A DNA stretch of 64,000 nucleotides from Candidatus Kapaibacterium sp. (lineage in GTDB: Bacteria; Bacteroidota; Ignavibacteria; Palsa-1295). Each line of letters starts with the position of its first letter. Within the stretch, counting starts at the first letter, position 1. Location of the stretch: contig JBBQGG010000007.1 of NCBI GenBank assembly GCA_038322815.1, positions 1,218-65,217 of the forward strand, given 5' to 3'. Positions 801 through 53,357 of the stretch are shown here, piece after piece. The notes beneath the pieces are model-generated. The model had not been told where the DNA came from, did no database searches, and saw nothing but the letters and a program-made list of their open reading frames with translations. The translations under genes and the position numbers were made by a program.

Positions 801-2105
801 CTATCTTCTTCCAATTCCATAATACTCCAGCCCATGCTCACGAATTTTTTCAGGATCATAAATATTTCGTCCGTCGAAAACTACTTTGTCTTTTAATTTT
901 GCAAGAAGATGAAAATCCGGATTGCGGAATTCATTCCATTCAGTTACGACAATAAGCGCATCAGCACCTTCAAGCGCTGTCATGTTTTTACGGTGATATT
1001 TCAATTGATCTGATTCAGGTAATATTTTCATCGTTGCCGGAATAGCAACAGGATCGCTTGCCTGGATCTTTGCTCCGAATGAAATAAGTGAATTGATTAT
1101 TTCGATGGAGGGCGCATCACGAATATCATCGGTTTTTGGTTTGAATGAAAGTCCCCAAAGCGCAAATGTTTTTCCGGAAATATTGCCGTTGTAATGCGCA
1201 AGAATTTTTTCAACTAAAACTTTCTTTTGCTTGTAATTTACTTCCTGAACAGCTTTTAGCGTTTTGAATTCGTAATTATTTTCAGCAGCAGTTTTTATTA
1301 TCGCGCTGACATCTTTCGGAAAGCAGCTACCGCCAAAACCGACTCCGGGAAAAAGAAATTGCTGACCGATCCGCCCATCAGAACCAATGCCCTTACGTAC
1401 ACTATCAACATCAGCGCCCACGGCATCACAAATATTTGCAATTTCATTCATGAAAGAAATACGGAGTGCAAGCATGGCATTGGCAGCATACTTCGTTATC
1501 TCCGCACTTTTTTCATCCATAATGTAGATCGGATTTCCGGTGCGAACAAATGGCTCGTATAACTCCTGCATTACTTCGATTGCTTCCGGACTCGATGAGC
1601 CAATGACAATTCTATCAGGTTTTAAAAAATCCTGTACTGCAGCCCCTTCTTTCAAAAATTCCGGATTTGAAACAACTTCAACTTTTATTTTTGTCTCCTG
1701 CTCAAATATTGCTTTTACTTTTCCTGCCGTACCGACCGGAACCGTTGATTTATTCACGATCACTTTCGGCTCAGTGATAATTTGCGCAATTTGTGTTGCT
1801 ACGGACATCACACGCGAAAGATCGGCAGCTCCATCTGCTCCCTGCGGTGTCGGAAGCGCAAGAAAAATTACTTGAGCACTAGCGATCGCCTCTTTCAGGT
1901 CCGTCGTGAATAATAATCGGCCTTCCGCAACATTAAATTTTACAATTTCTTCCAGTCCCGGTTCGTAAATCGGAATAATACCATTTTTTAATGCGTTTAC
2001 TTTTTCCTGCATAATATCCATGCAGACCACGTTATTGCCCGTCTCAGCAAAACCTGCACCTGTGACTAATCCGACATATCCTGTACCGACGATTGCGACG
2101 TTCAT
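801..2105 (-). CDS. ugd: UDP-glucose 6-dehydrogenase
   Basis: 434 aa with N-terminal MNVAIVGTGYVGLVTG NAD-binding motif and a central GGSCFPKD catalytic Cys motif typical of the UDP-glucose/GDP-mannose dehydrogenase family. Lies next to uxs, consistent with a UDP-Glc to UDP-GlcA to UDP-Xyl route. Confidence 0.9.
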   Translation of the reverse strand: MNVAIVGTGYVGLVTGAGFAETGNNVVCMDIMQEKVNALKNGIIPIYEPGLEEIVKFNVAEGRLLFTTDLKEAIASAQVIFLALPTPQGADGAADLSRVMSVATQIAQIITEPKVIVNKSTVPVGTAGKVKAIFEQETKIKVEVVSNPEFLKEGAAVQDFLKPDRIVIGSSSPEAIEVMQELYEPFVRTGNPIYIMDEKSAEITKYAANAMLALRISFMNEIANICDAVGADVDSVRKGIGSDGRIGQQFLFPGVGFGGSCFPKDVSAIIKTAAENNYEFKTLKAVQEVNYKQKKVLVEKILAHYNGNISGKTFALWGLSFKPKTDDIRDAPSIEIINSLISFGAKIQASDPVAIPATMKILPESDQLKYHRKNMTALEGADALIVVTEWNEFRNPDFHLLAKLKDKVVFDGRNIYDPEKIREHGLEYYGIGRR

Positions 2106-2140
2106 TTTTTAAAAAATATATCTTACCGGTAGAATTTTAT

Positions 2141-2186
2141 AGTGTCATTGCGAGTATGGCTTTAGCCGAACGAAGCAATGACATTC
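2141..2186. repeat. nested-palindrome repeat family, half copy (A)
   Basis: AGTGTCATTGCGAG...GCTTTAGCC...CGAAGCAATGACAT. Shares the left terminus and inner motif with copies B-F. Confidence 0.6.
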
Positions 2187-3725: not shown

Positions 3726-3847
3726 AGTGTCATTGCGAGAAGTGCTTTAGCCTGACGAAGCAATCCCCTGATAGTTTGTAGAAAGCAACAGTCTATAATT
3801 ATTCAGGGGATTGCTTCGGTCGCCTTCGGCGCCTCTCGCAATGACAT
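3726..3847. repeat. nested-palindrome repeat family, copy B
   Basis: AGTGTCATTGCGAG...CGAAGCAATCC...GGGGATTGCTTCG...CTCGCAATGACAT. Starts 5 nt after the bacilliredoxin stop. Confidence 0.8.
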
Positions 3848-3866
3848 AATAGGTCACAGAAAATCC

Positions 3867-3895
3867 CCGCGATTAAATCGCGGAATTTTTTTCTT
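3867..3895 (+). terminator. rho-independent terminator after the bacilliredoxin gene
   Basis: CCGCGA-ttaaa-TCGCGG hairpin followed by AATTTTTTT, immediately downstream of repeat copy B. Confidence 0.55.
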
Positions 3896-10424: not shown

Positions 10425-10600
10425 TTTTTTCTCTGCTGCTTTTTTCTCTGCCCATACATCTTTATAGCAGATATAGATAATCCCAGCCATTCCGGCAACC
10501 ATTCCAAAAAAGAAAATAAGCATAGTAGTTCGTGATAATTAGTTGTTGTGTCAAGATAACGGATTACGTGAGAAATTAGTTTTCTGGAAAATAATATCTT

Positions 10601-10726
10601 CCTCGCAATGACGACTCAATATAACGTCTTTGCGAGCGCAGCGAAGCAATCTAAAATTCAAGGGTTTATGAATCCGAAAGTGTAGATTGCTTCGTCAGTC
10701 GCTCCGCTCCATCCTCGCAATGACGT
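10601..10726. repeat. nested-palindrome repeat family, copy C (rearranged left end)
   Basis: CCTCGCAATGACG...AGCGAAGCAATC...GATTGCTTCGTC...CCTCGCAATGACG. Ends 2 nt before the MFS stop. Confidence 0.7.
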
Positions 10727-12053: not shown

Positions 12054-12239
12054 AGTTATTATTACGAAATTATCACAATGAAGTTGCATAAGTTTTGTCA
12101 GCGGAACGGGTGTTACTCCCTTCGTATCTGTGTATTGATGATTATCGCAAAAAACCCTTAAATCCGAAAAATCACGGTTCAGACCATATTTTCTCTGTAT
12201 ATTTGCATTCAGAATATTCACCAAAATCATTGAGAAATC

Positions 12240-13070
12240 GTGGCTGAAATAGCATTATCACATCAAACCGAAGTTCACGAGCATCATACGCCTGTCTATA
12301 CTAGCACCGGAACGCCGATGGGAAAAGTCTTTATGTGGCTTTTCCTGTGTCAGGATGCGTTGATGTTCATGGGACTTTTTGCAGCGTATATCTCCGTACG
12401 CATCGGTCAATCTGCGCTTTGGCCATCGCCGAACTCTGCGCATGCGCCGGGCATGGAGCACTATCCGCTGGATATCAATCTAACGGCTATCAATACCTTC
12501 ATCCTTATATGTTCGAGCGTAACGATGGTAATGGCTGTGCAGGCAGCGCAATCGGTTACGAAAAAAGGGCTTATTACATGGCTTCTTTTTACGGCGCTTG
12601 GCGGTGCGATATTTTTGGGAGTGCAGGTTTTTGAATACCGTCATCTCGTTTTTGAGGATGGCATGGGCATGGAAAAAAGTCTATTCGATGCTACTTTTTT
12701 CAGCCTCACAGGTTTTCACGGATTGCATGTACTTAGCGGAGTGATCTATCTGCTTTGCGTGGTGATCGCAACAAAGCTCGGACCAAAAGAACATTCGGAA
12801 AACGGCTGGGTGATGGCTTTTATGCGCATTGCTGCGATAGGCTTTTCACTATACTTATGGTTCGGACCATTGCATAAATGGCCGCCGCTTCCGCATGTAC
12901 TTGTTTCGATCCTTGCTGCAGCAGTACCATATATCATGATCCGCGGAGTAAAGTGGCTTCGCGAACGTCCGGTATCAGGACAAGGTGATGATGTGGAAGT
13001 AGTCGGATTGTACTGGCATTTTGTGGATCTGATCTGGATCATTTTGTTTACGCTTGTGTATCTGATCTGA
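12240..13070 (+). CDS. cytochrome c oxidase subunit III (heme-copper oxidase family)
   Basis: 276 aa and polytopic. Has the SLTGFHGLHVLSGVIYL motif characteristic of CoxC/CtaE. Confidence 0.85.
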   Translation: MAEIALSHQTEVHEHHTPVYTSTGTPMGKVFMWLFLCQDALMFMGLFAAYISVRIGQSALWPSPNSAHAPGMEHYPLDINLTAINTFILICSSVTMVMAVQAAQSVTKKGLITWLLFTALGGAIFLGVQVFEYRHLVFEDGMGMEKSLFDATFFSLTGFHGLHVLSGVIYLLCVVIATKLGPKEHSENGWVMAFMRIAAIGFSLYLWFGPLHKWPPLPHVLVSILAAAVPYIMIRGVKWLRERPVSGQGDDVEVVGLYWHFVDLIWIILFTLVYLI

Positions 13071-13075
13071 GTATT

Positions 13076-13194
13076 AGTGTCATTGCGAGGAGTCCGCTTG
13101 CGGGCGACGAAGCAATCCAGTATTCTAATATGTCAGTCTCTACCACGATGTAGGGGATTGCTTCGTCGGGCTAAAGCCCTTCTCGCAATGACAC
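13076..13194. repeat. nested-palindrome repeat family, copy D (between coxIII and coxIV)
   Basis: AGTGTCATTGCGAGGAG...CGACGAAGCAATCC...GGGGATTGCTTCGTCGGGCTAAAGCCC...CTCGCAATGACACT. Confidence 0.85.
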
Positions 13195-13212
13195 TTATAA
13201 TTTTTTTGAATT

Positions 13213-13515
13213 ATGACGATGGAACATAGCACAACCAACCATACTAAAACATATTTAAAGATCTTCGCAGCGCTTTTTGTGCTGACGGTTATCGAAGTAT
13301 TGCTTTCGCAAAGCGGAATGCCGCATACGCCGATGGTCGTATTGCTGATCGCGTTCGCACTTGTTAAAGCAGGGCTTGTTGCCGTGTATTTCATGCATTT
13401 GAAATATGATGCGAAATTCCTTTCGATCATTGCCTATGCTCCTCTTGTCGTTGCTTCGATCCTGATCTTCATGCTTGCAATGGAATGGACCTTCCAGCCG
13501 CATTGGCTATTTTAA
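13213..13515 (+). CDS. cytochrome c oxidase subunit IV (caa3-type small subunit)
   Basis: 100 aa with three TM helices, immediately after subunit III. Fits the subunit IV family pattern. Confidence 0.7.
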   Translation: MTMEHSTTNHTKTYLKIFAALFVLTVIEVLLSQSGMPHTPMVVLLIAFALVKAGLVAVYFMHLKYDAKFLSIIAYAPLVVASILIFMLAMEWTFQPHWLF

Positions 13516-13690: not shown

Positions 13691-13810
13691 CTTGTCATTC
13701 TGAGCGAGGCAGCGAAGAATCTGAGATTTCGGTTTGTCTGAAAGCTCAGATTCTTCGTTCCGCTTCTGCTCCTGTGGTCGCAGAAGAATGCTTCACTCAG
13801 AATGACAATT
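13691..13810. repeat. nested-palindrome repeat, variant family (copy E) with co-varying arms
   Basis: TGTCATTCTGAGCGAGGCAGCGAAGAATCTGAG...CTCAGATTCTTCG...CACTCAGAATGACAA. Same architecture as B/D/F, but both inverted-repeat pairs carry matched substitutions. Confidence 0.75.
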
Positions 13811-13875: not shown

Positions 13876-14544
13876 ATGAAATCATGTCATGGGAAAATTA
13901 TTTTTCTTCTTTGTATTAGCATTGCATTTATCTCCTGCAATACACAGAATACAGAAACAACTCCCGCGGCTCCGAAAGATTTTCATGGCATTCCTCCGCA
14001 GGGAATCGGCGGAGATAGTTTATTGAACATTGAAAAGAACAGATGGCTTTCTTCACAAAATTTTATTGATGTAAACGTCTCCGATATAATCGGCATTCAG
14101 CACGATATATTATCTGCCATCGGCAGTGAAGATCGCTATAAGTGGACTCCGGTTGCAATGAATCAGGCAGCTTCAGGTGAATTACGTGCCGTTCGTTTGA
14201 GTGGATATATACTAGCCGTAAAAGAAGAAGGTAATGAAAGTTGTAATGGCAATAATGATAATTATCATGATTACCATATTTGGATCACTGACTCTATCGG
14301 CAAAGATAAAAGCAAATCAATTATTGTTGAAGCAACTCCATTTTGGAAAGAACAATTTTCCGGTTGGCAATTGACAAAATTCGAGCAGTTAGTGAGCCAA
14401 CATGCATCCTTCAGAGTTTCTGGCTGGATCATGTGGGATGAAGATCATCCCGAGCAGATCGGCAGGAGCCGTGCATCATTATGGGAAATTCATCCGGTAA
14501 CGAAATTCGAATTCTTAAGCGGCGGAAACTGGCAGACATTATAA
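13876..14544 (+). CDS. lipoprotein of unknown function (paralog 1)
   Basis: Lipobox (LCISIAFISC). Shares a long conserved C-terminal block with 15887..16618 (PAPKDFHGIPP.GIGGD...YHD.HIWIT...I.VEATPFWKEQF..WQL..FE.L......RVSGWI.WDE.H.....SR.SLWE.HP.TKFE..SGG.W). Confidence 0.6.
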   Translation: MKSCHGKIIFLLCISIAFISCNTQNTETTPAAPKDFHGIPPQGIGGDSLLNIEKNRWLSSQNFIDVNVSDIIGIQHDILSAIGSEDRYKWTPVAMNQAASGELRAVRLSGYILAVKEEGNESCNGNNDNYHDYHIWITDSIGKDKSKSIIVEATPFWKEQFSGWQLTKFEQLVSQHASFRVSGWIMWDEDHPEQIGRSRASLWEIHPVTKFEFLSGGNWQTL

Positions 14545-15886: not shown

Positions 15887-16618
15887 ATGATTAAAGGAAT
15901 GTCAAAAAGTAATAAAATTCTTCTTACCCTCGGTCTTCTTATTGTTATCGTATTGATCTATATTGCGATTCGTAAGAATGAATCGCCCAAAGGAACTGGA
16001 ACTCCTGCTCCCTCATCTATCGGTCCGGCTCCGAAAGATTTTCATGGTATCCCCCCGGAAGGTATTGGCGGCGACCCTGAACTAAATAAAGAAAAGAACA
16101 GGTGGGCAGCGTCCACACAATTTATACCAATTGGTGTCAGTCAGATCATTTCTTTACCTCATGATGCATTGTTTATGATGGGGAAAGAAAGACGCAGCAG
16201 GTGGACATCGGCTGCAATTGAGCAGGCTGCTGCCAATGAAAATCGTGGAATTCAAGTGATCGGATATTTAGCACATGCAAAAGAATCAGGGTCGGAAGCA
16301 TGTAACGGAAAAAGTGATCTTTACCATGATTTTCATATTTGGATAACTGAATTTCCGGGAGAAAATAAAAATAAGGGAATTGTCGTCGAAGCTACGCCTT
16401 TTTGGAAAGAACAATTTCCTGCCTGGCAGCTTCGTGTTTTTGAGAAGCTTGCTGACCAAAATGCGAAGGTCAGAGTCTCAGGCTGGATCCTTTGGGATGA
16501 AGAACATGGGGATGAAGTAGGCAAGTCTCGTGGTTCACTATGGGAAGTTCATCCTTTTACAAAGTTTGAGGTATTTTCGGGCGGCAAGTGGGTTGAACTA
16601 GGGGCAGATGCTATCTGA
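15887..16618 (+). CDS. lipoprotein of unknown function (paralog 2)
   Basis: Paralog of 13876..14544 (see that entry). Completes a four-gene cluster. Confidence 0.6.
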   Translation: MIKGMSKSNKILLTLGLLIVIVLIYIAIRKNESPKGTGTPAPSSIGPAPKDFHGIPPEGIGGDPELNKEKNRWAASTQFIPIGVSQIISLPHDALFMMGKERRSRWTSAAIEQAAANENRGIQVIGYLAHAKESGSEACNGKSDLYHDFHIWITEFPGENKNKGIVVEATPFWKEQFPAWQLRVFEKLADQNAKVRVSGWILWDEEHGDEVGKSRGSLWEVHPFTKFEVFSGGKWVELGADAI

Positions 16619-16680: not shown

Positions 16681-17367
16681 ATGAGACTCCTAATTTTTGT
16701 ATCGATCTTTTTTTTCTGCAGGGTAGCTTTTTCTCAGGAAGACCCTCATCCGATGATGAAACCCGGGAGGACCATGGCTCCTATAGCTCCTAAATCGTAT
16801 GCCGATAGTGAAGAATTCAAAAAATTGTTCAAAGAATTTTATCCTATTATTAAACCTGCAAAATCCGTCAAAGAACAGGCAGCCCAATATTTTCAGGGTA
16901 TATCGCGTTCGTTTGCAATGCAGGGTATTGATTCTGCCGAAGCTGCAAAGGCAGCATTCAAAAATTTGGATGACCAAGCTTTTGAAAAACTATATTTCGA
17001 TATTTATCGTAGGAATTTAAGCGCAAAAGAATTAAAAATCTATAATGCGTTTATAAAAACCCCTGAAGGAAAACATATTGCAGAAGTATGGACAAATCTT
17101 CAGCGCGCATCAAGCGATGCAACAATGTATATTGCCCGAACATTGAATCTCAATCTTACTCCCATTCGTCAGGCAGCACGCGATAAGATGGAAAAAGAAC
17201 GATCTCAGAAAGGGGAGGAGCATCCGCCAAACATGCCGACTCGACGGGGAAACGTAGATGTCTTTGATCAGAGAAATGCCGGCTCAAAAGATTCGTTGAT
17301 GAATTTGCAAAGGCAGCAAGGCAAAATTCCTCCGGTGAAAATTCCTGCTGTCCCTTCAGAAAAGTGA
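16681..17367 (+). CDS. secreted hypothetical protein (possibly DUF2059-like)
   Basis: Signal peptide, alpha-helical composition, and a charged C-terminal tail. Confidence 0.4.
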   Translation: MRLLIFVSIFFFCRVAFSQEDPHPMMKPGRTMAPIAPKSYADSEEFKKLFKEFYPIIKPAKSVKEQAAQYFQGISRSFAMQGIDSAEAAKAAFKNLDDQAFEKLYFDIYRRNLSAKELKIYNAFIKTPEGKHIAEVWTNLQRASSDATMYIARTLNLNLTPIRQAARDKMEKERSQKGEEHPPNMPTRRGNVDVFDQRNAGSKDSLMNLQRQQGKIPPVKIPAVPSEK

Positions 17368-23513: not shown

Positions 23514-23561
23514 AAATAATATTTCTACTCACTAATGATTTTCAAACGTAATAGTGTCATT

Positions 23562-23676
23562 GCGAGAAGGGCTTTAGCCCGCCGAAACAATCCCCTGAGG
23601 GTTAACCGAGAAGCTGATCATAATACCTCAGGAGATTGCTTCGTCGTCGCTGCACGACTCCTCGCAATGACACTCT
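23562..23676. repeat. nested-palindrome repeat family, copy F (contains the bamA start codon)
   Basis: AGTGTCATTGCGAGAAGGGCTTTAGCCC...CGAAACAATCC...GAGATTGCTTCG...CTCGCAATGACACT. The ATG at 23667 lies in the terminal CTCGCAATGAC. Confidence 0.85.
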
Positions 23677-26087
23677 TATTCGTTATGTGTAATTTTTCTG
23701 CAGCATTCTCTCAAACTCCCGGCAGTGAGCAGGAATATACTGTTCTCGGCATCACTGTCGAAGGAAATATTTCCGGCAGTGCGGAGACGATCATTGCGCA
23801 GAGCACGATCAGAAAAGGCGATAAGATCACGATGCCATCGGATGAGATACGCCGTGCGATCACTCGGCTTTGGCAGCAGAATATTTTTTCTGATGTGAAT
23901 ATCGAAGCAACGAAGATCATCCCACAAGATGGCGGAACGTTCGGAGTGTATCTGACGATCAAGGTAAAAGAATTCCAGCATGCTGATTCCATTATTATTG
24001 ACGGATACAAACATCTCTCATTAGGCGACATTCAGAAATCTTTTACGTTTTATAAAAATGATTTCTTGCGTCCGTGGGAAGTTGCAAATATCAGGCAGAA
24101 GATCAGAGCTGCATATATGAAAGAAGGGTATCAGTATGCCGATATTACAACGGAGATCAAGCCGGTCGGCGATGGCACCAATAAAGTCCGGCTGTATATT
24201 CATATCAATGAAGGTACGGAAGTAACGGTTCGTCATATTGATTTTGCCGGCAATGCCAATATTTCTTCAAGTGATCTGCGCAGTGCGATGGACGATACAC
24301 ATGAGAAGCGACCATTCCCCTCAATTATAAGTATCTTTCGAAGTGGAAATTTTGATGAGAAAAAATTTCAGGACGATAAACAACGAGTCCTTGCGTATTA
24401 CCGCACTAAGGGTTACCGTGATGCAGCAATTCTTGGTGATACCATTTGGGTAACTGATAAAGAAGATCTTAACATTCTCGTTTCGGTCTATGAAGGTCCT
24501 CAATATGTTCTTCGAAATATTTCCATCATCGGCAACGAAGTTTTCTCAGAAACTGAGGTTCGCCAAAATCTCGGATTCAAAAAAGGCGATGTGTATAATG
24601 TCGAGAAATTCCAATTGAATCTTAAAGGACCGACTCCTGATTTTATCGATGTTGGTTCATTATACTATGATCGCGGGTATATCGTCAATATCGAACCTGT
24701 CGAAACGATAATTCCGAGAGCTGAAGGCGAGAGCGGACCGGACTCACTCGATATTGCCATTCATATCATCGAAGGCAAACGACATTTTATTCGGAATGTA
24801 GATATTGCCGGTAATACAAAAACAAAAGATTATGTCATCCGTCGTGAGCTTTATACTCGCCCCGGCGACCCGTTCAGCCGCTCGGCGATCATCCGCTCAC
24901 TTCGTCAGCTTGCACAACTAAATTATTTTAATCAGGAAAAACTTGTTCCGGATGTAAAGCCGGTGCCGGACGCAACGCAATTTGATATTACCTATAATGT
25001 CGAAGAAAAATCGAGCGATACATTTAATGCTTCGCTTGGTTACGGAGGCTCTCTGGGTTTGACGGGTTCGATTGGTCTTTCATTTAACAATTTTGATATA
25101 GCTGATCCGCTTCATGGCGGAGCAGGTCAGATCGCAACGATTTCTGCAGAGTTCGGACAGTCGAGCTACCGGTCACTTTCGATCGGCGTAACGGAGCCAT
25201 GGCTTTTTCAGGAGCCGACAGCGCTTGGGTTTACGATCTTTAATCAGCAGAGTAATATTTATTACAGCATCGTCCGCACCGGTGCAACGATCTCTGTCGG
25301 CAGACGCTTTCGTGTGCCGGATGATTTTTTCCGCGGCGATTGGACATTACTCGGGCAGCATTCGAACATTACATCGGGCGGTGGCATCTACAATCCCGGT
25401 GTTCATGATGAAATTAGTTTGCAGCAAGTGATCTCGCGTAATTCGACGGACGACCCGCTCTTTCCCGGAGCAGGTTCCGATCTTTCATTCCTGACCAAGG
25501 TAGCGTTCTTACCATTGAAATCCAAAACTCCGAATGAGCCTGCAAATTATTATAAGGTCGGTTTTTCATTAAAATTTTATTCGACGATCGTGCAGTTCAA
25601 TGCAGTAAATAAAATTGTACTTGCAACAGTTGCCGATGTCGGGCAATTAGGTGGGATCAGCGGATCGCCGTTCGTACCACCACAAGAACGTTTCACCATG
25701 GGAGGTTCGGGTCTTGCAACAGGTTTTTATACGATTCCTCTTCGTGGATATAACGATGCTTCAATAGGCATTCAAACAGCTCCGGGTTCTACATATTCGC
25801 AAGGCGGACTTTTCTACAACCGCTATGCTGCCGAACTTCGCTTCCAGATTGCGCGTGAACCTATTCCTATTTTTGTCGAAGCATTTGCGGAAGCAGGAAA
25901 TGTGTGGACGAATTTTTCTCACAGCGATCCCTTTACCCTAAAACGCGCTGCAGGTGTTGGCGCAAGAGTACAGGTTCCTGCAGTAGGACTTATCGGTATA
26001 GATCTTGGTTACGGTTTCGATGCTAATATACCCTTCGGATCTGTCAGCGGCTGGCATACGCATTTCCAGTTCGGAAGATTTTTCTAA
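23667..26087 (+). CDS. bamA: outer membrane protein assembly factor BamA (Omp85)
   Basis: Five POTRA-like repeats and a C-terminal 16-strand barrel ending HTHFQFGRFF. The ORF track start at 23535 lies inside repeat copy F. The in-frame ATG at 23667 (MTLLFVMCNFSAAFSQ signal) is preferred. uppS-bamA adjacency is typical. Confidence 0.88.
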   Translation: MTLLFVMCNFSAAFSQTPGSEQEYTVLGITVEGNISGSAETIIAQSTIRKGDKITMPSDEIRRAITRLWQQNIFSDVNIEATKIIPQDGGTFGVYLTIKVKEFQHADSIIIDGYKHLSLGDIQKSFTFYKNDFLRPWEVANIRQKIRAAYMKEGYQYADITTEIKPVGDGTNKVRLYIHINEGTEVTVRHIDFAGNANISSSDLRSAMDDTHEKRPFPSIISIFRSGNFDEKKFQDDKQRVLAYYRTKGYRDAAILGDTIWVTDKEDLNILVSVYEGPQYVLRNISIIGNEVFSETEVRQNLGFKKGDVYNVEKFQLNLKGPTPDFIDVGSLYYDRGYIVNIEPVETIIPRAEGESGPDSLDIAIHIIEGKRHFIRNVDIAGNTKTKDYVIRRELYTRPGDPFSRSAIIRSLRQLAQLNYFNQEKLVPDVKPVPDATQFDITYNVEEKSSDTFNASLGYGGSLGLTGSIGLSFNNFDIADPLHGGAGQIATISAEFGQSSYRSLSIGVTEPWLFQEPTALGFTIFNQQSNIYYSIVRTGATISVGRRFRVPDDFFRGDWTLLGQHSNITSGGGIYNPGVHDEISLQQVISRNSTDDPLFPGAGSDLSFLTKVAFLPLKSKTPNEPANYYKVGFSLKFYSTIVQFNAVNKIVLATVADVGQLGGISGSPFVPPQERFTMGGSGLATGFYTIPLRGYNDASIGIQTAPGSTYSQGGLFYNRYAAELRFQIAREPIPIFVEAFAEAGNVWTNFSHSDPFTLKRAAGVGARVQVPAVGLIGIDLGYGFDANIPFGSVSGWHTHFQFGRFF

Positions 26088-51054: not shown

Positions 51055-51141
51055 CGCCCACCTCACCCCAGCCCTCTCCTTAGGAAGGAGAGGGAGTTTT
51101 TTTAAATTCCCTCTCCTTTATAAGGAGAGGGTTAGGGTGAG
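51055..51141. repeat. hairpin repeat element (double copy, cruciform-capable) between the ASCH and DUF559 genes
   Basis: CCTCACCCCAGCCCTCTCCTTAggaAGGAGAGGGAG...CCCTCTCCTTTATAAGGAGAGGGttaGGGTGAGG. Two CCCTCTCC/GGAGAGGG hairpins sit inside an outer CCTCACCC/GGGTGAGG inverted repeat. Confidence 0.75.
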
Positions 51142-51155
51142 GTAGAGCCCGAGGG

Positions 51156-51536
51156 TTAGGGTGTGGTAGATCCCAGAAGCTTTTCTTTTGCTACTCGTTC
51201 TATCTCTGTCAGAACATCATCAATTGTGTTTGTCACTTCGGTATCTGTGAATCTGAGAAAAGTTATTTTATATCCTTCGATAATTTTTTGCCGCCATTCG
51301 TCTTTTCTTTTTGCATCTTCGCTATCGTGCGTTGCTCCATCGAGTTCGATGGCAAGTCTTATTTCAGGCGCATAAAAATCGAGGACGAAGCCGCCGACGC
51401 TGTATTGGCGGCGGAATTTTATTCCGGCAATTTGGGAGTTGCGGACACGTCGCCAAATCAGCTTTTCCGAGAAAGTAGAGTCATGCCTGAGCGCGCGGCG
51501 TTTTTCTTTATGCTCGGATTTGTTGTAGAGTTTCAT
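51156..51536 (-). CDS. DUF559 (Vsr-like endonuclease domain) protein
   Basis: 126 aa. The ...GFVLDFYAPEIRLAIELDGATHD...ITFLRF pattern is typical of DUF559. Flanked on both sides by a CCTCACCCCAGCCCTCTCCTTA hairpin repeat. Confidence 0.75.
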   Translation of the reverse strand: MKLYNKSEHKEKRRALRHDSTFSEKLIWRRVRNSQIAGIKFRRQYSVGGFVLDFYAPEIRLAIELDGATHDSEDAKRKDEWRQKIIEGYKITFLRFTDTEVTNTIDDVLTEIERVAKEKLLGSTTP

Positions 51537-51556
51537 GGTGCAAAAATACGAAGAGA

Positions 51557-51592
51557 CCTCACCCCAGCCCTCTCCTTATAAAGGAGAGGGAG
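51557..51592. repeat. hairpin repeat element, copy 2 (between DUF559 and AlbA_2)
   Basis: CCTCACCCCAGCCCTCTCCTTATAAAGGAGAGGGAG. Confidence 0.75.
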
Positions 51593-51601
51593 TTTGAAGC
51601 T

Positions 51602-52078
51602 TTGATTGCCCAAGGAGAAAGCCATGAATTGGAATTCAAAGAGACTGGACGCTGGGATGTACGGCAGGGAATGGTTAGCCCGGTTATGGGGCAGATACTC
51701 GTGAAGACAGTTGCCGGTTTCATGAATTCAGAATCCGGAGGTTCACTCATCATTGGAGTAGATGATTCAGGAATTGCTATTGGTATCGACCGAGACCTTG
51801 CGACATTCGGGAAGAAGCATAATCCAAAAGATGAATTCGAGCAGTACCTTCAAAATCTCATCCTTTCTCGTTGCGGAAAAGAATCTGCGGCATTAGTAAA
51901 GATTATTTTCCACACTACCCAAGGAAAAGAACTCTGTAAAATCGAAGTAAAGCCATCGCTGAAGCAAGTGTATGTTACCGAAGACTCTGTTGAGAAATTT
52001 TATGTCCGCTCAGGCAATACAACGCAAACACTTTCGATGAGTGAAGCACATGAGTATATCCGTCACAGATTCCGGTAA
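51602..52078 (+). CDS. AlbA_2 (Schlafen-like, 'divergent AAA') domain protein
   Basis: ESHELEFKETGRWDV...QILVKTVAGFMNSESGGSLIIGVDDSGIAIGI matches the AlbA_2 core (E.LEFK...LKTI.AFAN..GG.L.IGVDD.G.VVG). Confidence 0.6.
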   Translation: MIAQGESHELEFKETGRWDVRQGMVSPVMGQILVKTVAGFMNSESGGSLIIGVDDSGIAIGIDRDLATFGKKHNPKDEFEQYLQNLILSRCGKESAALVKIIFHTTQGKELCKIEVKPSLKQVYVTEDSVEKFYVRSGNTTQTLSMSEAHEYIRHRFR

Positions 52079-52091
52079 GGAGTTTAGATAA

Positions 52092-52130
52092 CCTCACCCC
52101 AGCCCTCTCCTTATTTTGAAGGAGTGGGAG
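52092..52130. repeat. hairpin repeat element, copy 3 (after AlbA_2; degenerate right arm)
   Basis: CCTCACCCCAGCCCTCTCCTTATTTTGAAGGAGTGGGAG. Confidence 0.7.
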
Positions 52131-52386
52131 TTATCAAGCTTAAAGCGAAAAGCGAAAAGCTAAAATGGGGAATTGAATTCGGTCCACAATTTTATTTTCT
52201 TTCCTTCCAACCCCGACCCCGATTATTATTCTATAAAAATTATATTTCATTGTATCTTAATCTTTTACAAACTTTTTTATTTTTTTTCTGTGAAATTCTT
52301 GGATTTTCTATTTTTATGTTGTATATTAGTTGGTGCTCTGATAGGCACCTATTAAAAATATATATTATTTTGGCATTCTGCCGAAA

Positions 52387-52520
52387 AGTAGTTAGTAGAT
52401 AGTAGTTAGTAGTGAGGAAAAAGAGTCCGGCTACTTACTACTAACTACTAACTACTTACTACTTACTACTTACTACTTACTACTAACTACTTACTACTAA
52501 CTACTATCTACTTACTACTG
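52387..52520. repeat. heptanucleotide microsatellite arranged as an inverted repeat (AGTAGTT x4 | spacer | AACTACT/TACTACT x~13)
   Basis: Left arm AGTAGTTAGTAGATAGTAGTTAGTAGT (52387-52413) is the reverse complement, with one mismatch, of the distal end of the right array (52494-52520). About 90 nt of TACTACT/AACTACT units lie between. Ends 34 nt upstream of ORF 52554. Confidence 0.8.
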
Positions 52521-52553
52521 ACCAGATTTTTTTAACATTACAGGAGAAATACG

Positions 52554-53357
52554 ATGATACCGAAAGACGTGAAAACAGTATATATAAAGAATATTCCAGT
52601 CGCTCACGGTGAGATCAGCGTTGTGCTGGCTGACGATGCGGAAAAATTGATGCGCCATTCTTGCCAAGTTGGAGAACAAATTAAGCGCGCAGGGCTTGGC
52701 GTCCTTCTCATTAATTGCGGAATGAGCGACCGTCGCTTCCGCAATCATGCGCGTGAAGCAACGACAGCACTGGAGGGTCAGCCGTTCGAGCACATGCCCT
52801 ACGCAACCGGAACCGATGCACCCAAAGAGATGCTGATCCATAGTTCGGTCGCCGGCGATCTTATCGGCGAGATGGATCTGCTCAGCGGACTTGTTGCCCA
52901 GTGCGCGATCGGTGTCGTAATAATCGCCGGATGGGAATGGACTTCATCCGGATATCGCCGGAAAGAACGGCTGCTCTATGCCATACGTGAGATGATGAGG
53001 AAGTATGATGTAGCCGTAGTCATTTATGCATCAGCCAAGACGAATTCGCAGCCCGGCAAATGTGACCGCGGCGGAATCGGCAGATTAGCGATGCTTGCCG
53101 TCTCGATCCTGAATTTGGATGCTGCTGATATGTTAGAATCGGTTTCTCCGAAGCCGCTGCCCATCGTTGCAACTAAAAAAGATTGGGAAGATGCCGAGCG
53201 AAGTGCACAATTACTTGGCAGTAAAATCAATGAGTTAGGGGGGGGTCGATGGTCGATCGTCGATAGTCGGGGAATGAGGGCAAAAGGATTGAAGGCGCCG
53301 GTGAAGTCAACATTATTGATGAAACCGAAGATTTTAACCGGGAATCAGGCAGGGTAA
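52554..53357 (+). CDS. hypothetical protein, possibly a degenerate RecA/DnaB-like P-loop fold lacking Walker A
   Basis: 267 aa. Alternating beta-strand-like hydrophobic runs (GVLLINCG, VVIIAGWEW, VAVVIYASAKTNSQ), but no GxxxxGK[ST] motif. Good RBS (AGGAG) upstream. Lies in the island next to the AlbA_2 and DUF559 genes. Confidence 0.35.
   Translation: MIPKDVKTVYIKNIPVAHGEISVVLADDAEKLMRHSCQVGEQIKRAGLGVLLINCGMSDRRFRNHAREATTALEGQPFEHMPYATGTDAPKEMLIHSSVAGDLIGEMDLLSGLVAQCAIGVVIIAGWEWTSSGYRRKERLLYAIREMMRKYDVAVVIYASAKTNSQPGKCDRGGIGRLAMLAVSILNLDAADMLESVSPKPLPIVATKKDWEDAERSAQLLGSKINELGGGRWSIVDSRGMRAKGLKAPVKSTLLMKPKILTGNQAG

Follow-up and report, generated by a model that had tools for sequence, protein, structure and literature searches.

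The window analysed here is a stretch of 64,000 nucleotides (64 kb) from contig JBBQGG010000007.1 of a bacterium related to Candidatus Kapaibacterium. It contains six copies of a repeat of ~120 nt that had been described, from the sequence alone, as a nested palindrome with an outer and an inner inverted repeat. This element is better read as two inverted hairpin units, each 25–45 nt long, with their tags pointing outward. We consider it probable that the ~120-nt elements are head-to-head doublets and that their short units belong to the CGTC/TGTC-tagged superfamily of repetitive extragenic palindromes (REPs). The family is not new, as it fits this published superfamily, and the finding itself is an ordinary member of a described repeat class. 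What is new is the host lineage, Kapabacteria, and the elaborated apical hairpin.

The conserved structure is a hairpin within each arm

In order, a unit comprises a YGTC tag, the stem strand AT-NNN, GA, a variable apical hairpin, GA(A), the returning strand N'N'N'-AT and a C-Y-M tail. The stem has 5 bp: the AT is constant, and the other three pairs vary but stay complementary. The GA/GA(A) segments form an internal loop that may contain tandem G.A pairs. The apical part extends from a 7-nt G-C-GNA-G-C mini-hairpin to stem-loops of 12–38 nt, the latter being the form found in the window. Across 473 units, the base preceding GTC was T (57%), C (39%) or another base (4%), and the tail began with C (97%), followed by T (57%) or C (38%) and then by C (49%) or A (32%).

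In the window copies, the outer-left motif is complementary to the inner-left motif (ATTGC/GCAAT), and a variant, copy E, alters both (ATTCT/AGAAT). We therefore performed a covariation scan in which the stem triplets were left free while the tag, loop and tail were fixed. NNN and N'N'N' were Watson-Crick complementary in 123 of 134 units, which represented at least 11 different stems. Among the units whose left stem triplet was other than TGC, 52 of 60 were fully complementary, as compared to ~1/64 by chance. These data bear out the earlier proposal that pairing is kept while sequence varies. The sub-type represented by copy E is common elsewhere, accounting for 24 of the 134 units, and also occurs in L239, a locus of a related genome described below. 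A looser wildcard scan of viral contigs (GTCATTHNGAG...GAANNAATC) returned chance matches, 9 of 105 being complementary, and was replaced by a more specific pattern.

We also gathered 84 doublets without imposing any pairing requirement. In 16 of these, the two arms differed from each other and each was internally complementary; 54 were uninformative. By contrast, arms that paired with each other but not internally were found in none of the 84. The occurrence of 16 doublets of the one pattern versus none of the reverse indicates that the conserved structure is the hairpin within each arm, formed between the outer-left and inner-left strands. The nested outer and inner inverted repeats of the earlier description are present in the sequence, but they are not the constrained pairings; they follow from two hairpins placed back to back. 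The arms of a doublet need not be alike: they were of different stem type in 20 of 78 doublets, they carry different apical hairpins in copies B, D and F, and locus L385 has three copies of one heterodimer.

The apical segments are structured as well. Those of at least 9 nt (175 distinct) folded with an energy of −4.39 kcal/mol versus −2.01 kcal/mol for shuffles (p = 7e-19), GAA being the commonest loop. Related copies differed by compensatory apical swaps, namely GGGC/GCCC versus GGAC/GTCC and GGCGAAGCC versus GCCGAAGGC.

A scan of IMG/VR with a half-element pattern matched at least 120 contigs. Among the matches listed, which held 185 units, the stretch from GTCATTGCGAG to CGAAGCAATC was most commonly 5 nt long (CGAAG in 28 units, CGCAG in 12, CGGAG in 8 and CGTAG in 8), and the remaining stretches were longer and self-complementary. 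C-GNA-G was thus present in 56 of the 185, in a sample not selected on the loop. Adjacent units among these listed matches were arranged head-to-head (39), in tandem (15) or tail-to-tail (5), with a modal spacer of ~23 nt. Mini-hairpins of d(GCGNAGC) are very stable, and the minimal apical G-C-GNA-G-C flanked by GA/GA resembles them. This likeness hints at a hairpin at the DNA level but does not count as evidence for one.

Copies in the window

The first 24 kb of the window contain all six copies (Table 1). A search for full units found no complete unit in the remaining 40 kb (24–64 kb). The sequence-only reading had put the density at one per ~10 kb, which would amount to hundreds genome-wide; the distribution is instead uneven, with all copies at 2–24 kb. 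The copies themselves proved real, and their coordinates had been right to within a few bases. The 14-mer AGTGTCATTGCGAG, at up to two mismatches, had 7 matches in the window versus 0.45 expected, and none of 100 shuffles reached 7. Similarly, the inner 11-mer CGAAGCAATCC, at up to one mismatch, had 10 matches versus 1.79 expected, and GTCATTSYGAG had 15 versus 3.66. A repeat finder picked up the same copies. Every copy folded far more stably than its shuffles (z −3.6 to −10.2), as had been anticipated, and pairwise identity between whole copies was just 55–76%.

Some details of the earlier description required correction. Copy F, which had been placed at 23562-23676, exists but has different ends, and copy C, also genuine, consists of a shorter doublet and a separate right-end fragment. 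The left hairpin of copy B, which had been read as GGCTTTAGCC, is really just GC-TTTA-GC.

The copies differ in layout. Copy A has the tag at its 5' end and the tag complement at its 3' end, an arrangement that would result from central deletion of a doublet. The left unit of copy C is the 26-nt minimal form, with an apical C-GCA-G and one mismatch in the tag region. Phage loci also repeatedly show a partial end duplication like the stray fragment next to copy C, of the form ...AATGAC N6-13 GTCATT.... The apical hairpins of copy D are GTCCGC-TT-GCGGGC (left) and GGGC-TAAA-GCCC (right), and those of copy F are GGGC-TTTA-GCCC with one stem mismatch, CGAAACAAT (left), and GTCG-CTGCA-CGAC (right). 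Copy E is a sister sub-type, having the stem ATTCT/AGAAT instead of ATTGC/GCAAT and a long apical insert in its right unit.

Table 1. Copies of the element in the window, with their units, folding against shuffles and neighbouring genes
Feature	Position	Organisation	Left unit	Spacer	Right unit	Fold	Neighbouring genes
Copy A	2141-2186	single 'double-foot' unit, AGTGTC-ATTGC-GAG-[GGC TTTA GCC]-CGAA-GCAAT-GACA				-21.7 kcal/mol, z -6.0	5' of UDP-glucose dehydrogenase gene, minus strand (Pfam)
Copy B	3726-3848	head-to-head doublet	3729-3765	3766-3808	3809-3845	z -10.2	begins 5 nt past stop of bacilliredoxin-type gene (PF06491), upstream of rpoN
Right-end fragment CCTCGCAATGACG	10600-10613	isolated, minus strand; 13 nt from copy C, tail-to-tail					
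Copy C	10626-10724	head-to-head doublet, CGTC tags	10626-10651		10685-10724	z -3.6	ends 3 nt past stop of MFS_3 transporter gene (minus strand)
Copy D	13076-13195	head-to-head doublet	13079-13117	13118-13155	13156-13192	z -7.5	between coxIII stop (13070) and coxIV start (13213)
Copy E	13691-13810	doublet, variant with GTCATTCTGAG and CGAAGAATC	13694-13721		13749-13806	z -9.9	after small open reading frame that follows coxIV
Copy F	23553-23674	head-to-head doublet	23556-23592		23634-23671	z -6.4	between uppS and bamA

Gain and loss of copies between related genomes

The CoxIII relatives found in a species-level genome collection were metagenome-assembled genomes labelled Candidatus Kapaibacterium or Bacteroidota. 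Amino-acid identity of CoxIII to that of the window was 89% in locus L238, 86% in L239, 83% in L240 and 64–70% in L241–L244. The window also encodes proteins that carry the sorting domain of type IX secretion, and its host is related to Candidatus Kapaibacterium. The relatives' loci share a conserved gene order, so the sites could be compared one by one.

Copy D is common to the window and L239; its right half is 100% identical between the two, and the flanking genes are ~81% identical. It is absent from the coxIII/coxIV junction of L238, where the stop and start codons overlap as TAATG, and from the same junction in L240–L244, which have short unrelated spacers. A metagenome scan for closer relatives yielded one useful contig, L410 (85% CoxIII identity). 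Its coxIII/coxIV junction contains a doublet with different flanks and a spacer that matches copy B, not copy D. This doublet and copy B are 78% identical over their alignment, spacer included, although they occupy different loci. Since doublets recur with their spacer at unrelated loci, the doublet is copied as one piece.

Other sites also differ between the genomes. Copy F is missing from the uppS/bamA spacer in L240 and L243. L239 carries a full copy at 12184-12295, a site that is unoccupied in the window, and at the position of copy C its decayed G-type copy contains a nested E-type doublet. Density ranges from 0 copies in 20.8 kb of L238 to ~5 in 19.8 kb of L239. Copies have been gained and lost between genomes with CoxIII 83–89% identical to the window's, and turnover is recent. 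The empty orthologous sites in these relatives confirm that the element spreads by insertion, as had been proposed. At the position of window copy E, L410 (1090-1170) carries a different palindromic doublet, GTGGGACGGACTCTTAGTCCGTCC ... GGCGGACTAAGAGTCCGCCCCAC; one spacer thus hosts different hairpin repeats in different genomes.

Insertions and carriage in phages

We joined the flanks of each element and searched them against the other loci. Many filled/empty pairs were found among related phages. These included a clean 40-nt insertion between a ribosome-binding site and a start codon (L404 versus L003), a clean 25-26-nt insertion corresponding to exactly one unit (L388 versus L401), and an insertion right after a TGA stop codon with CAT on both sides (L393 versus L105). 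One phage spacer was filled in three cases and empty in four, and its orthologous copies differ by the compensatory swap in the apical stem, GGCGAAGCC versus GCCGAAGGC. Overall, insertion sites were short spacers by stop codons, ribosome-binding sites and start codons, and occasionally lay in frame within genes. The filled/empty sites, the nested insertion in L239 and the clean 25–40-nt insertions without target-site duplication together indicate that the elements are mobile and are not classical miniature inverted-repeat transposable elements (MITEs).

Units are carried by many phages, including prophages of Helicobacter canis, and we suggest that phages are vehicles of the units. L015 is among the phages that have one unit in nearly each intergenic gap, all in the same orientation. 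In L039 (7311-9068) and L063 (804-2432), in-frame REP-derived inserts occupy the same variable surface loop of the large terminase; the inserts are EEAEIASLEGRQLAMTK and three ARNDG-type units. L039 contains a second, unrelated repeat-derived insert, HTKDTKGTQRDTK....

Relationship to described repeats

In the survey by Di Nocera, De Gregorio and Rocco (2013, BMC Genomics 14:522, PMC3733652), the CGTC-tagged REP superfamily comprises CGTC-1 to CGTC-4 and includes Rickettsia RPE-4 and RPE-6 and Neisseria dRS3 (dRS3 being CGTC-1). Its hosts are given there as Proteobacteria, Chlorobi, Bacteroidetes, Spirochaetes and Thermotogae. The families have fully paired 8-9-bp stems and 4-5-nt loops, with other loop lengths in some CGTC-1 and CGTC-3. 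According to the same survey, these REPs are not associated with transposase genes, none being flanked by CGTC repeats in the survey, and were suggested to be relics heading for extinction.

The units described here agree with this account in many respects, consistent with the earlier proposal of a REP-like interspersed family. The published tag is an unpaired terminal CGTC, often TGTC or CCTC; copy C and the stray fragment have CGTC, and copies A, B, D, E and F have TGTC. The published stem opens with a complementary AT, as does that of every window unit (GTC-AT...AT-C), and the published tail is 3 nt, unpaired, with the consensus CCA; the left unit of copy D reads AAT-CCA-G and units in general have C-Y-M. 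In both cases, head-to-head dimers with tags outside dominate, tail-to-tail dimers are rare and heterodimers are common. Published spacers are likewise 20-100 nt, with ends that are often complementary. Further shared features are an intergenic location near the 3' ends of open reading frames (ORFs), some in-frame intragenic copies, uneven abundance between related genomes and the lack of an associated transposase. One of the CGTC-1 peptides, VIPAKAGI of Rickettsia conorii, which we back-translated to GTCATTCCCGCGAAAGCGGGAATC, shares its frame with the units described here. Stem and loop lengths give no clear match either way: the minimal form of 25-26 nt fits a stem of 8-9 positions, including two G.A mismatches, around a loop of 3-5 nt, but the window units carry 12-38-nt apical inserts. 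A Kapabacteria host and wide phage carriage are not covered in PMC3733652.

REPINs are REP doublets mobilised by RAYTs, REP-associated tyrosine transposases (Bertels and Rainey 2011, PMC3116915; Quentin et al. 2018, PMC6006769). As with the elements here, a REPIN has two inverted REP units and a less conserved spacer, together able to form a long hairpin; the doublet is copied whole with its spacer, and singlets look like remnants. REPINs are also extragenic, produce no target duplication and differ greatly in number between relatives. However, the REPIN guide is 5' GT[AG]G at the hairpin foot, whereas the tag here is YGTC, and the definition of REPINs includes a cognate single-copy RAYT gene with the same REPs on its flanks, none of which was found here in the fragments searched. 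A published table of RAYTs and their REPs contained no GTCATT or AATGAC sequence.

A further comparison is with the small dispersed repeats of Nostoc, which are reportedly hairpin elements of 21-27 nt confined to cyanobacteria and for which an RNA intermediate is said to have been proposed. They too are reported to be apparently mobile, to nest in each other and in heptamer arrays, to show compensatory changes and to have no known enzyme, but their sequences are unlike those here. Integron attC sites, which have R''/L''...L'/R' boxes with a GTTRRRY core and are arrayed behind cassettes beside an integrase, were rejected: the termini read YGTCAT..., not GTTRRRY, and the genes on either side of the copies are core housekeeping genes in synteny with those of relatives. 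No integrase family was among the Pfam matches of the window ORFs. A literature search by exact motif (GTCATTGCGAG, its complement and longer variants) returned chance primer matches or nothing, and nothing relevant was found in the literature on Kapabacteria repeats.

Proposed mechanism and search for a mobilising enzyme

By analogy with other REPs, the element would spread as non-autonomous DNA via a hairpin-forming single-stranded intermediate. An enzyme supplied in trans would recognise the hairpin and its tag and cut there; the precedent of the GTAG REPs makes an HUH/Y1 (RAYT-like) nuclease the most likely candidate. The inserted element would be transcribed with its neighbours and would act at most as a stable RNA hairpin, not as a terminator. 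This putative RNA hairpin could protect the upstream message at its 3' end, as a buffer, or could break the translational coupling of neighbours such as coxIII and coxIV.

We clustered all ORFs of the 120 loci listed; the recurrent families near units were phage head and packaging genes only. ORFs between two elements no more than 1.8 kb apart were mostly phage structural or hypothetical, and none was a transposase. No Y1, GIY-YIG or other nuclease flanked by units was found in the genome fragments searched; the window and ~230 kb of Kapaibacterium-related loci contained no Y1_Tnp gene. A blastn search of copy D against plasmids gave no match, the query being too short and divergent.

A RAYT search was performed with phmmer over 4.2 Mb, using IS200 TnpA and E. 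coli RAYT queries. It returned three Y1_Tnp genes, one being an IS200 with its own end hairpins and the two others being RAYT-like (L333, L349) and flanked by a different REP, GTGGCGCAGGCTTCCAGCCTGTGGG. All three genes have their own, different hairpins, and no RAYT partner of the elements emerged from these sequences. A GIY-YIG partner was set aside for lack of support, as the only ORF to match the motif in any of the loci was homing-endonuclease-like.

The RAYT-like Y1_Tnp genes of L333 (1000-1860) and L349 (1200-1800; degraded) have doublets of GTGGCGCAGGCTTC(C)AGCCTGTGGG on both sides, an arrangement that looks like a REPtron inside contigs classed as viral by IMG/VR. L349 also contains, at 2190-2300, approximately seven tandem copies of the 17-nt TCAAATCGAATGATCTT, ~30 nt upstream of the RAYT-like ORF (1410-2165, minus strand).

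A bolder reading would be that the CGTC/TGTC REPs are currently active rather than relics, that their smallest mobile form is a single 25-26-nt hairpin, that insertion is precise and duplication-free, that tailed phages carry them between distant phyla, and that they are moved by a phage- or host-encoded enzyme class not yet linked to REPs. Taken as a whole, we find this combination conceivable but doubtful. If true, DNA mobility would gain a new route, used by some of the smallest mobile elements known. The single-arm hairpin, precise insertion, recent turnover and phage carriage define what a search for the enzyme must explain.

Alternative explanations

Instead of being mobile DNA, the elements might be cis-acting structured RNAs, such as processing or RNase sites, 3'-end stabilisers or translational uncouplers, kept in place by selection and repeated through convergent recruitment. 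The hairpins are stable and co-vary, copies B, C and D lie 3–6 nt past stop codons, with D between co-transcribed genes, and the L015-type phages have their units in a single orientation, all of which fits such a role; moreover, REPs have been published as mostly downstream of ORFs and plausibly acting as RNA. However, single units were in the same orientation as the flanking genes in 53 cases and in the opposite orientation in 37. With no clear preference of orientation, selection on RNA structure, which had been suggested earlier, is not established. In addition, close relatives differ in whether essential operons contain a copy, a given junction can have one doublet in one genome and a different doublet in another, and in-frame units are tolerated inside terminase genes. 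The whole window had no match in Rfam at gathering thresholds, and relaxed thresholds around copies D and E gave chance-level miRNA and snoRNA hits only. None of the six copies passed a scan for a hairpin followed by a T-run, and a terminator role for the elements was therefore rejected; the bacilliredoxin-like gene has its intrinsic terminator (3867-3883, then a T-run) just downstream of copy B. An RNA function is compatible with the data as a secondary role after insertion, but an origin in place is unlikely.

We give still less weight to a duplex DNA recognition site for a protein, whether a factor acting on the nucleoid or on topology, in the way that gyrase acts on E. coli REPs, or a site-specific recombinase with the element as landing pad. 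Each doublet does present four ATTGC/GCAAT pentamers in alternating orientation, the tag, GA and tail show strong conservation even between hosts that differ widely in base composition, and REPs are cited as gyrase targets in published work. In Neisseria, dRS3 serves as a prophage target. Nevertheless, the co-varying stem bases point to a folded single strand and not to duplex readout. Close relatives range from 0 to ~5 copies per 20 kb, which speaks against a chromosomal function that the host needs. In the window, the copies are clumped in 24 of 64 kb.

The sequence-only reading had also likened the element to a MITE. Were it a classical MITE, it would have arisen by deletion from an insertion sequence, GTGTCATTGCGAG would be its terminal inverted repeats (TIRs), and a DDE transposase would move it and make target-site duplications. 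The 11-14-nt terminal inverted repeats, the size of ~120 nt, the intergenic location and the presence/absence polymorphism are all in keeping with this, and known MITEs (Correia elements, RUP, Nezha) are likewise ~100-150 nt, intergenic and co-transcribed. But MITEs make target-site duplications and derive from identifiable insertion sequences, and neither is true here. No consistent target-site duplication was present at the window copies, and no direct repeats flanked 70 other doublets, which showed a weak pyrimidine/purine extension of the palindrome only. Arms with different stems within one element break the supposed TIR pairing while each arm stays paired, and a lone 25-26-nt unit inserts by itself. 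Finally, no transposase bounded by the termini was found in ~4 Mb of loci chosen for holding the repeat, and Pfam scans of 58 of the 61 window ORFs revealed no transposase family. The comparison with MITEs thus fails for want of a target-site duplication and of an autonomous partner, and we regard this origin as very unlikely.

Several points weigh against our preferred interpretation of the elements as doublets of the CGTC/TGTC REP superfamily. In L239, the left arm of copy D has five substitutions and an indel, none compensated on the paired strand; single copies are therefore able to decay, and structural selection does not act on all of them. No mobilising enzyme turned up, so the HUH/single-strand step is argued from analogy. 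Unlike the families in the survey cited above, each unit here combines a stem of 5 bp with a GA/GA(A) interruption and, in the window, an apical part of 12-38 nt; the units fit the superfamily but perhaps none of the four named families. Lastly, palindromes can remain self-complementary through template-switch repair without selection. The corresponding explanation, in which the covariation is a mutational artefact of palindromes correcting themselves by intrastrand template switching or gene conversion, is the least probable of all: the perfect identity of the right half of copy D between the window and L239, against ~81% for the flanking genes, does suggest conversion or recent replacement, and partial end duplications recur, but template switching does not explain how the unpaired tag, the GA/GA loop and the tail stay the same across at least 11 different stems, the left arm of copy D in L239 decays uncorrected, and the process accounts for maintenance, not for spread to new loci.

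Gene context and annotation

Pfam confirmed the intergenic positions next to stop and start codons that had been noted for the bacilliredoxin-type, MFS_3, coxIII/coxIV and uppS/bamA contexts. Because coxIII and coxIV overlap in the closest relative and copy D lies between them here, copy D must be transcribed through; by extension, the copies in the window would be co-transcribed spacers. The repeats flag remodelled operon junctions, coxIII and coxIV being 142 nt apart in the window and overlapping in the closest relative. The right flank of copy D (13195-13215, TATAATTTTTTTGAATTATGACGATGG) contains a perfect TATAAT and then a T-run just before coxIV. This promoter-like sequence may have arisen, or been brought in, next to the insertion.

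The mechanical ORF of bamA starts at 23535 and runs through copy F. The true start is probably the ATG at 23685, 3' of copy F, and automatic annotation of bamA would gain ~50 spurious residues from the repeat. Spurious ORFs and false start codons produced by the repeats are a practical matter for annotating this genome.

Two ORFs, 13876-14544 and 15887-16618, have no Pfam match and share 80 nt at 76% identity (13967-14046 versus 16026-16105); they look like tandem paralogues. L238 and L239 align only to ORF 15887-16618, and L240 is without a counterpart of ORF 13876-14544.

Other repeats in the window

A second, unrelated hairpin repeat, ACCTCACCCCAGCCCTCTCC-loop-GGAGAGGG...GGGTGAGGT, is present in four copies at 51060-52130. 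Its copies bracket a small gene for a DUF559/Vsr-like endonuclease (51156-51536, minus strand; PF04480, E = 2e-27) and, at 51602-52078, a Schlafen AlbA_2 gene. With a nuclease gene enclosed by hairpin repeats of its own, the region resembles a small islet of the mobile or defence type. Inverted arrays of a 7-nt repeat, (AGTAGTT)n facing (ACTACTT)n, occur at 52386-52535, just upstream of a gene starting at 52554, and the facing arrays are able to form a long hairpin. A similar heptamer array adjoins a REP unit in L239, at ~17140-17180.

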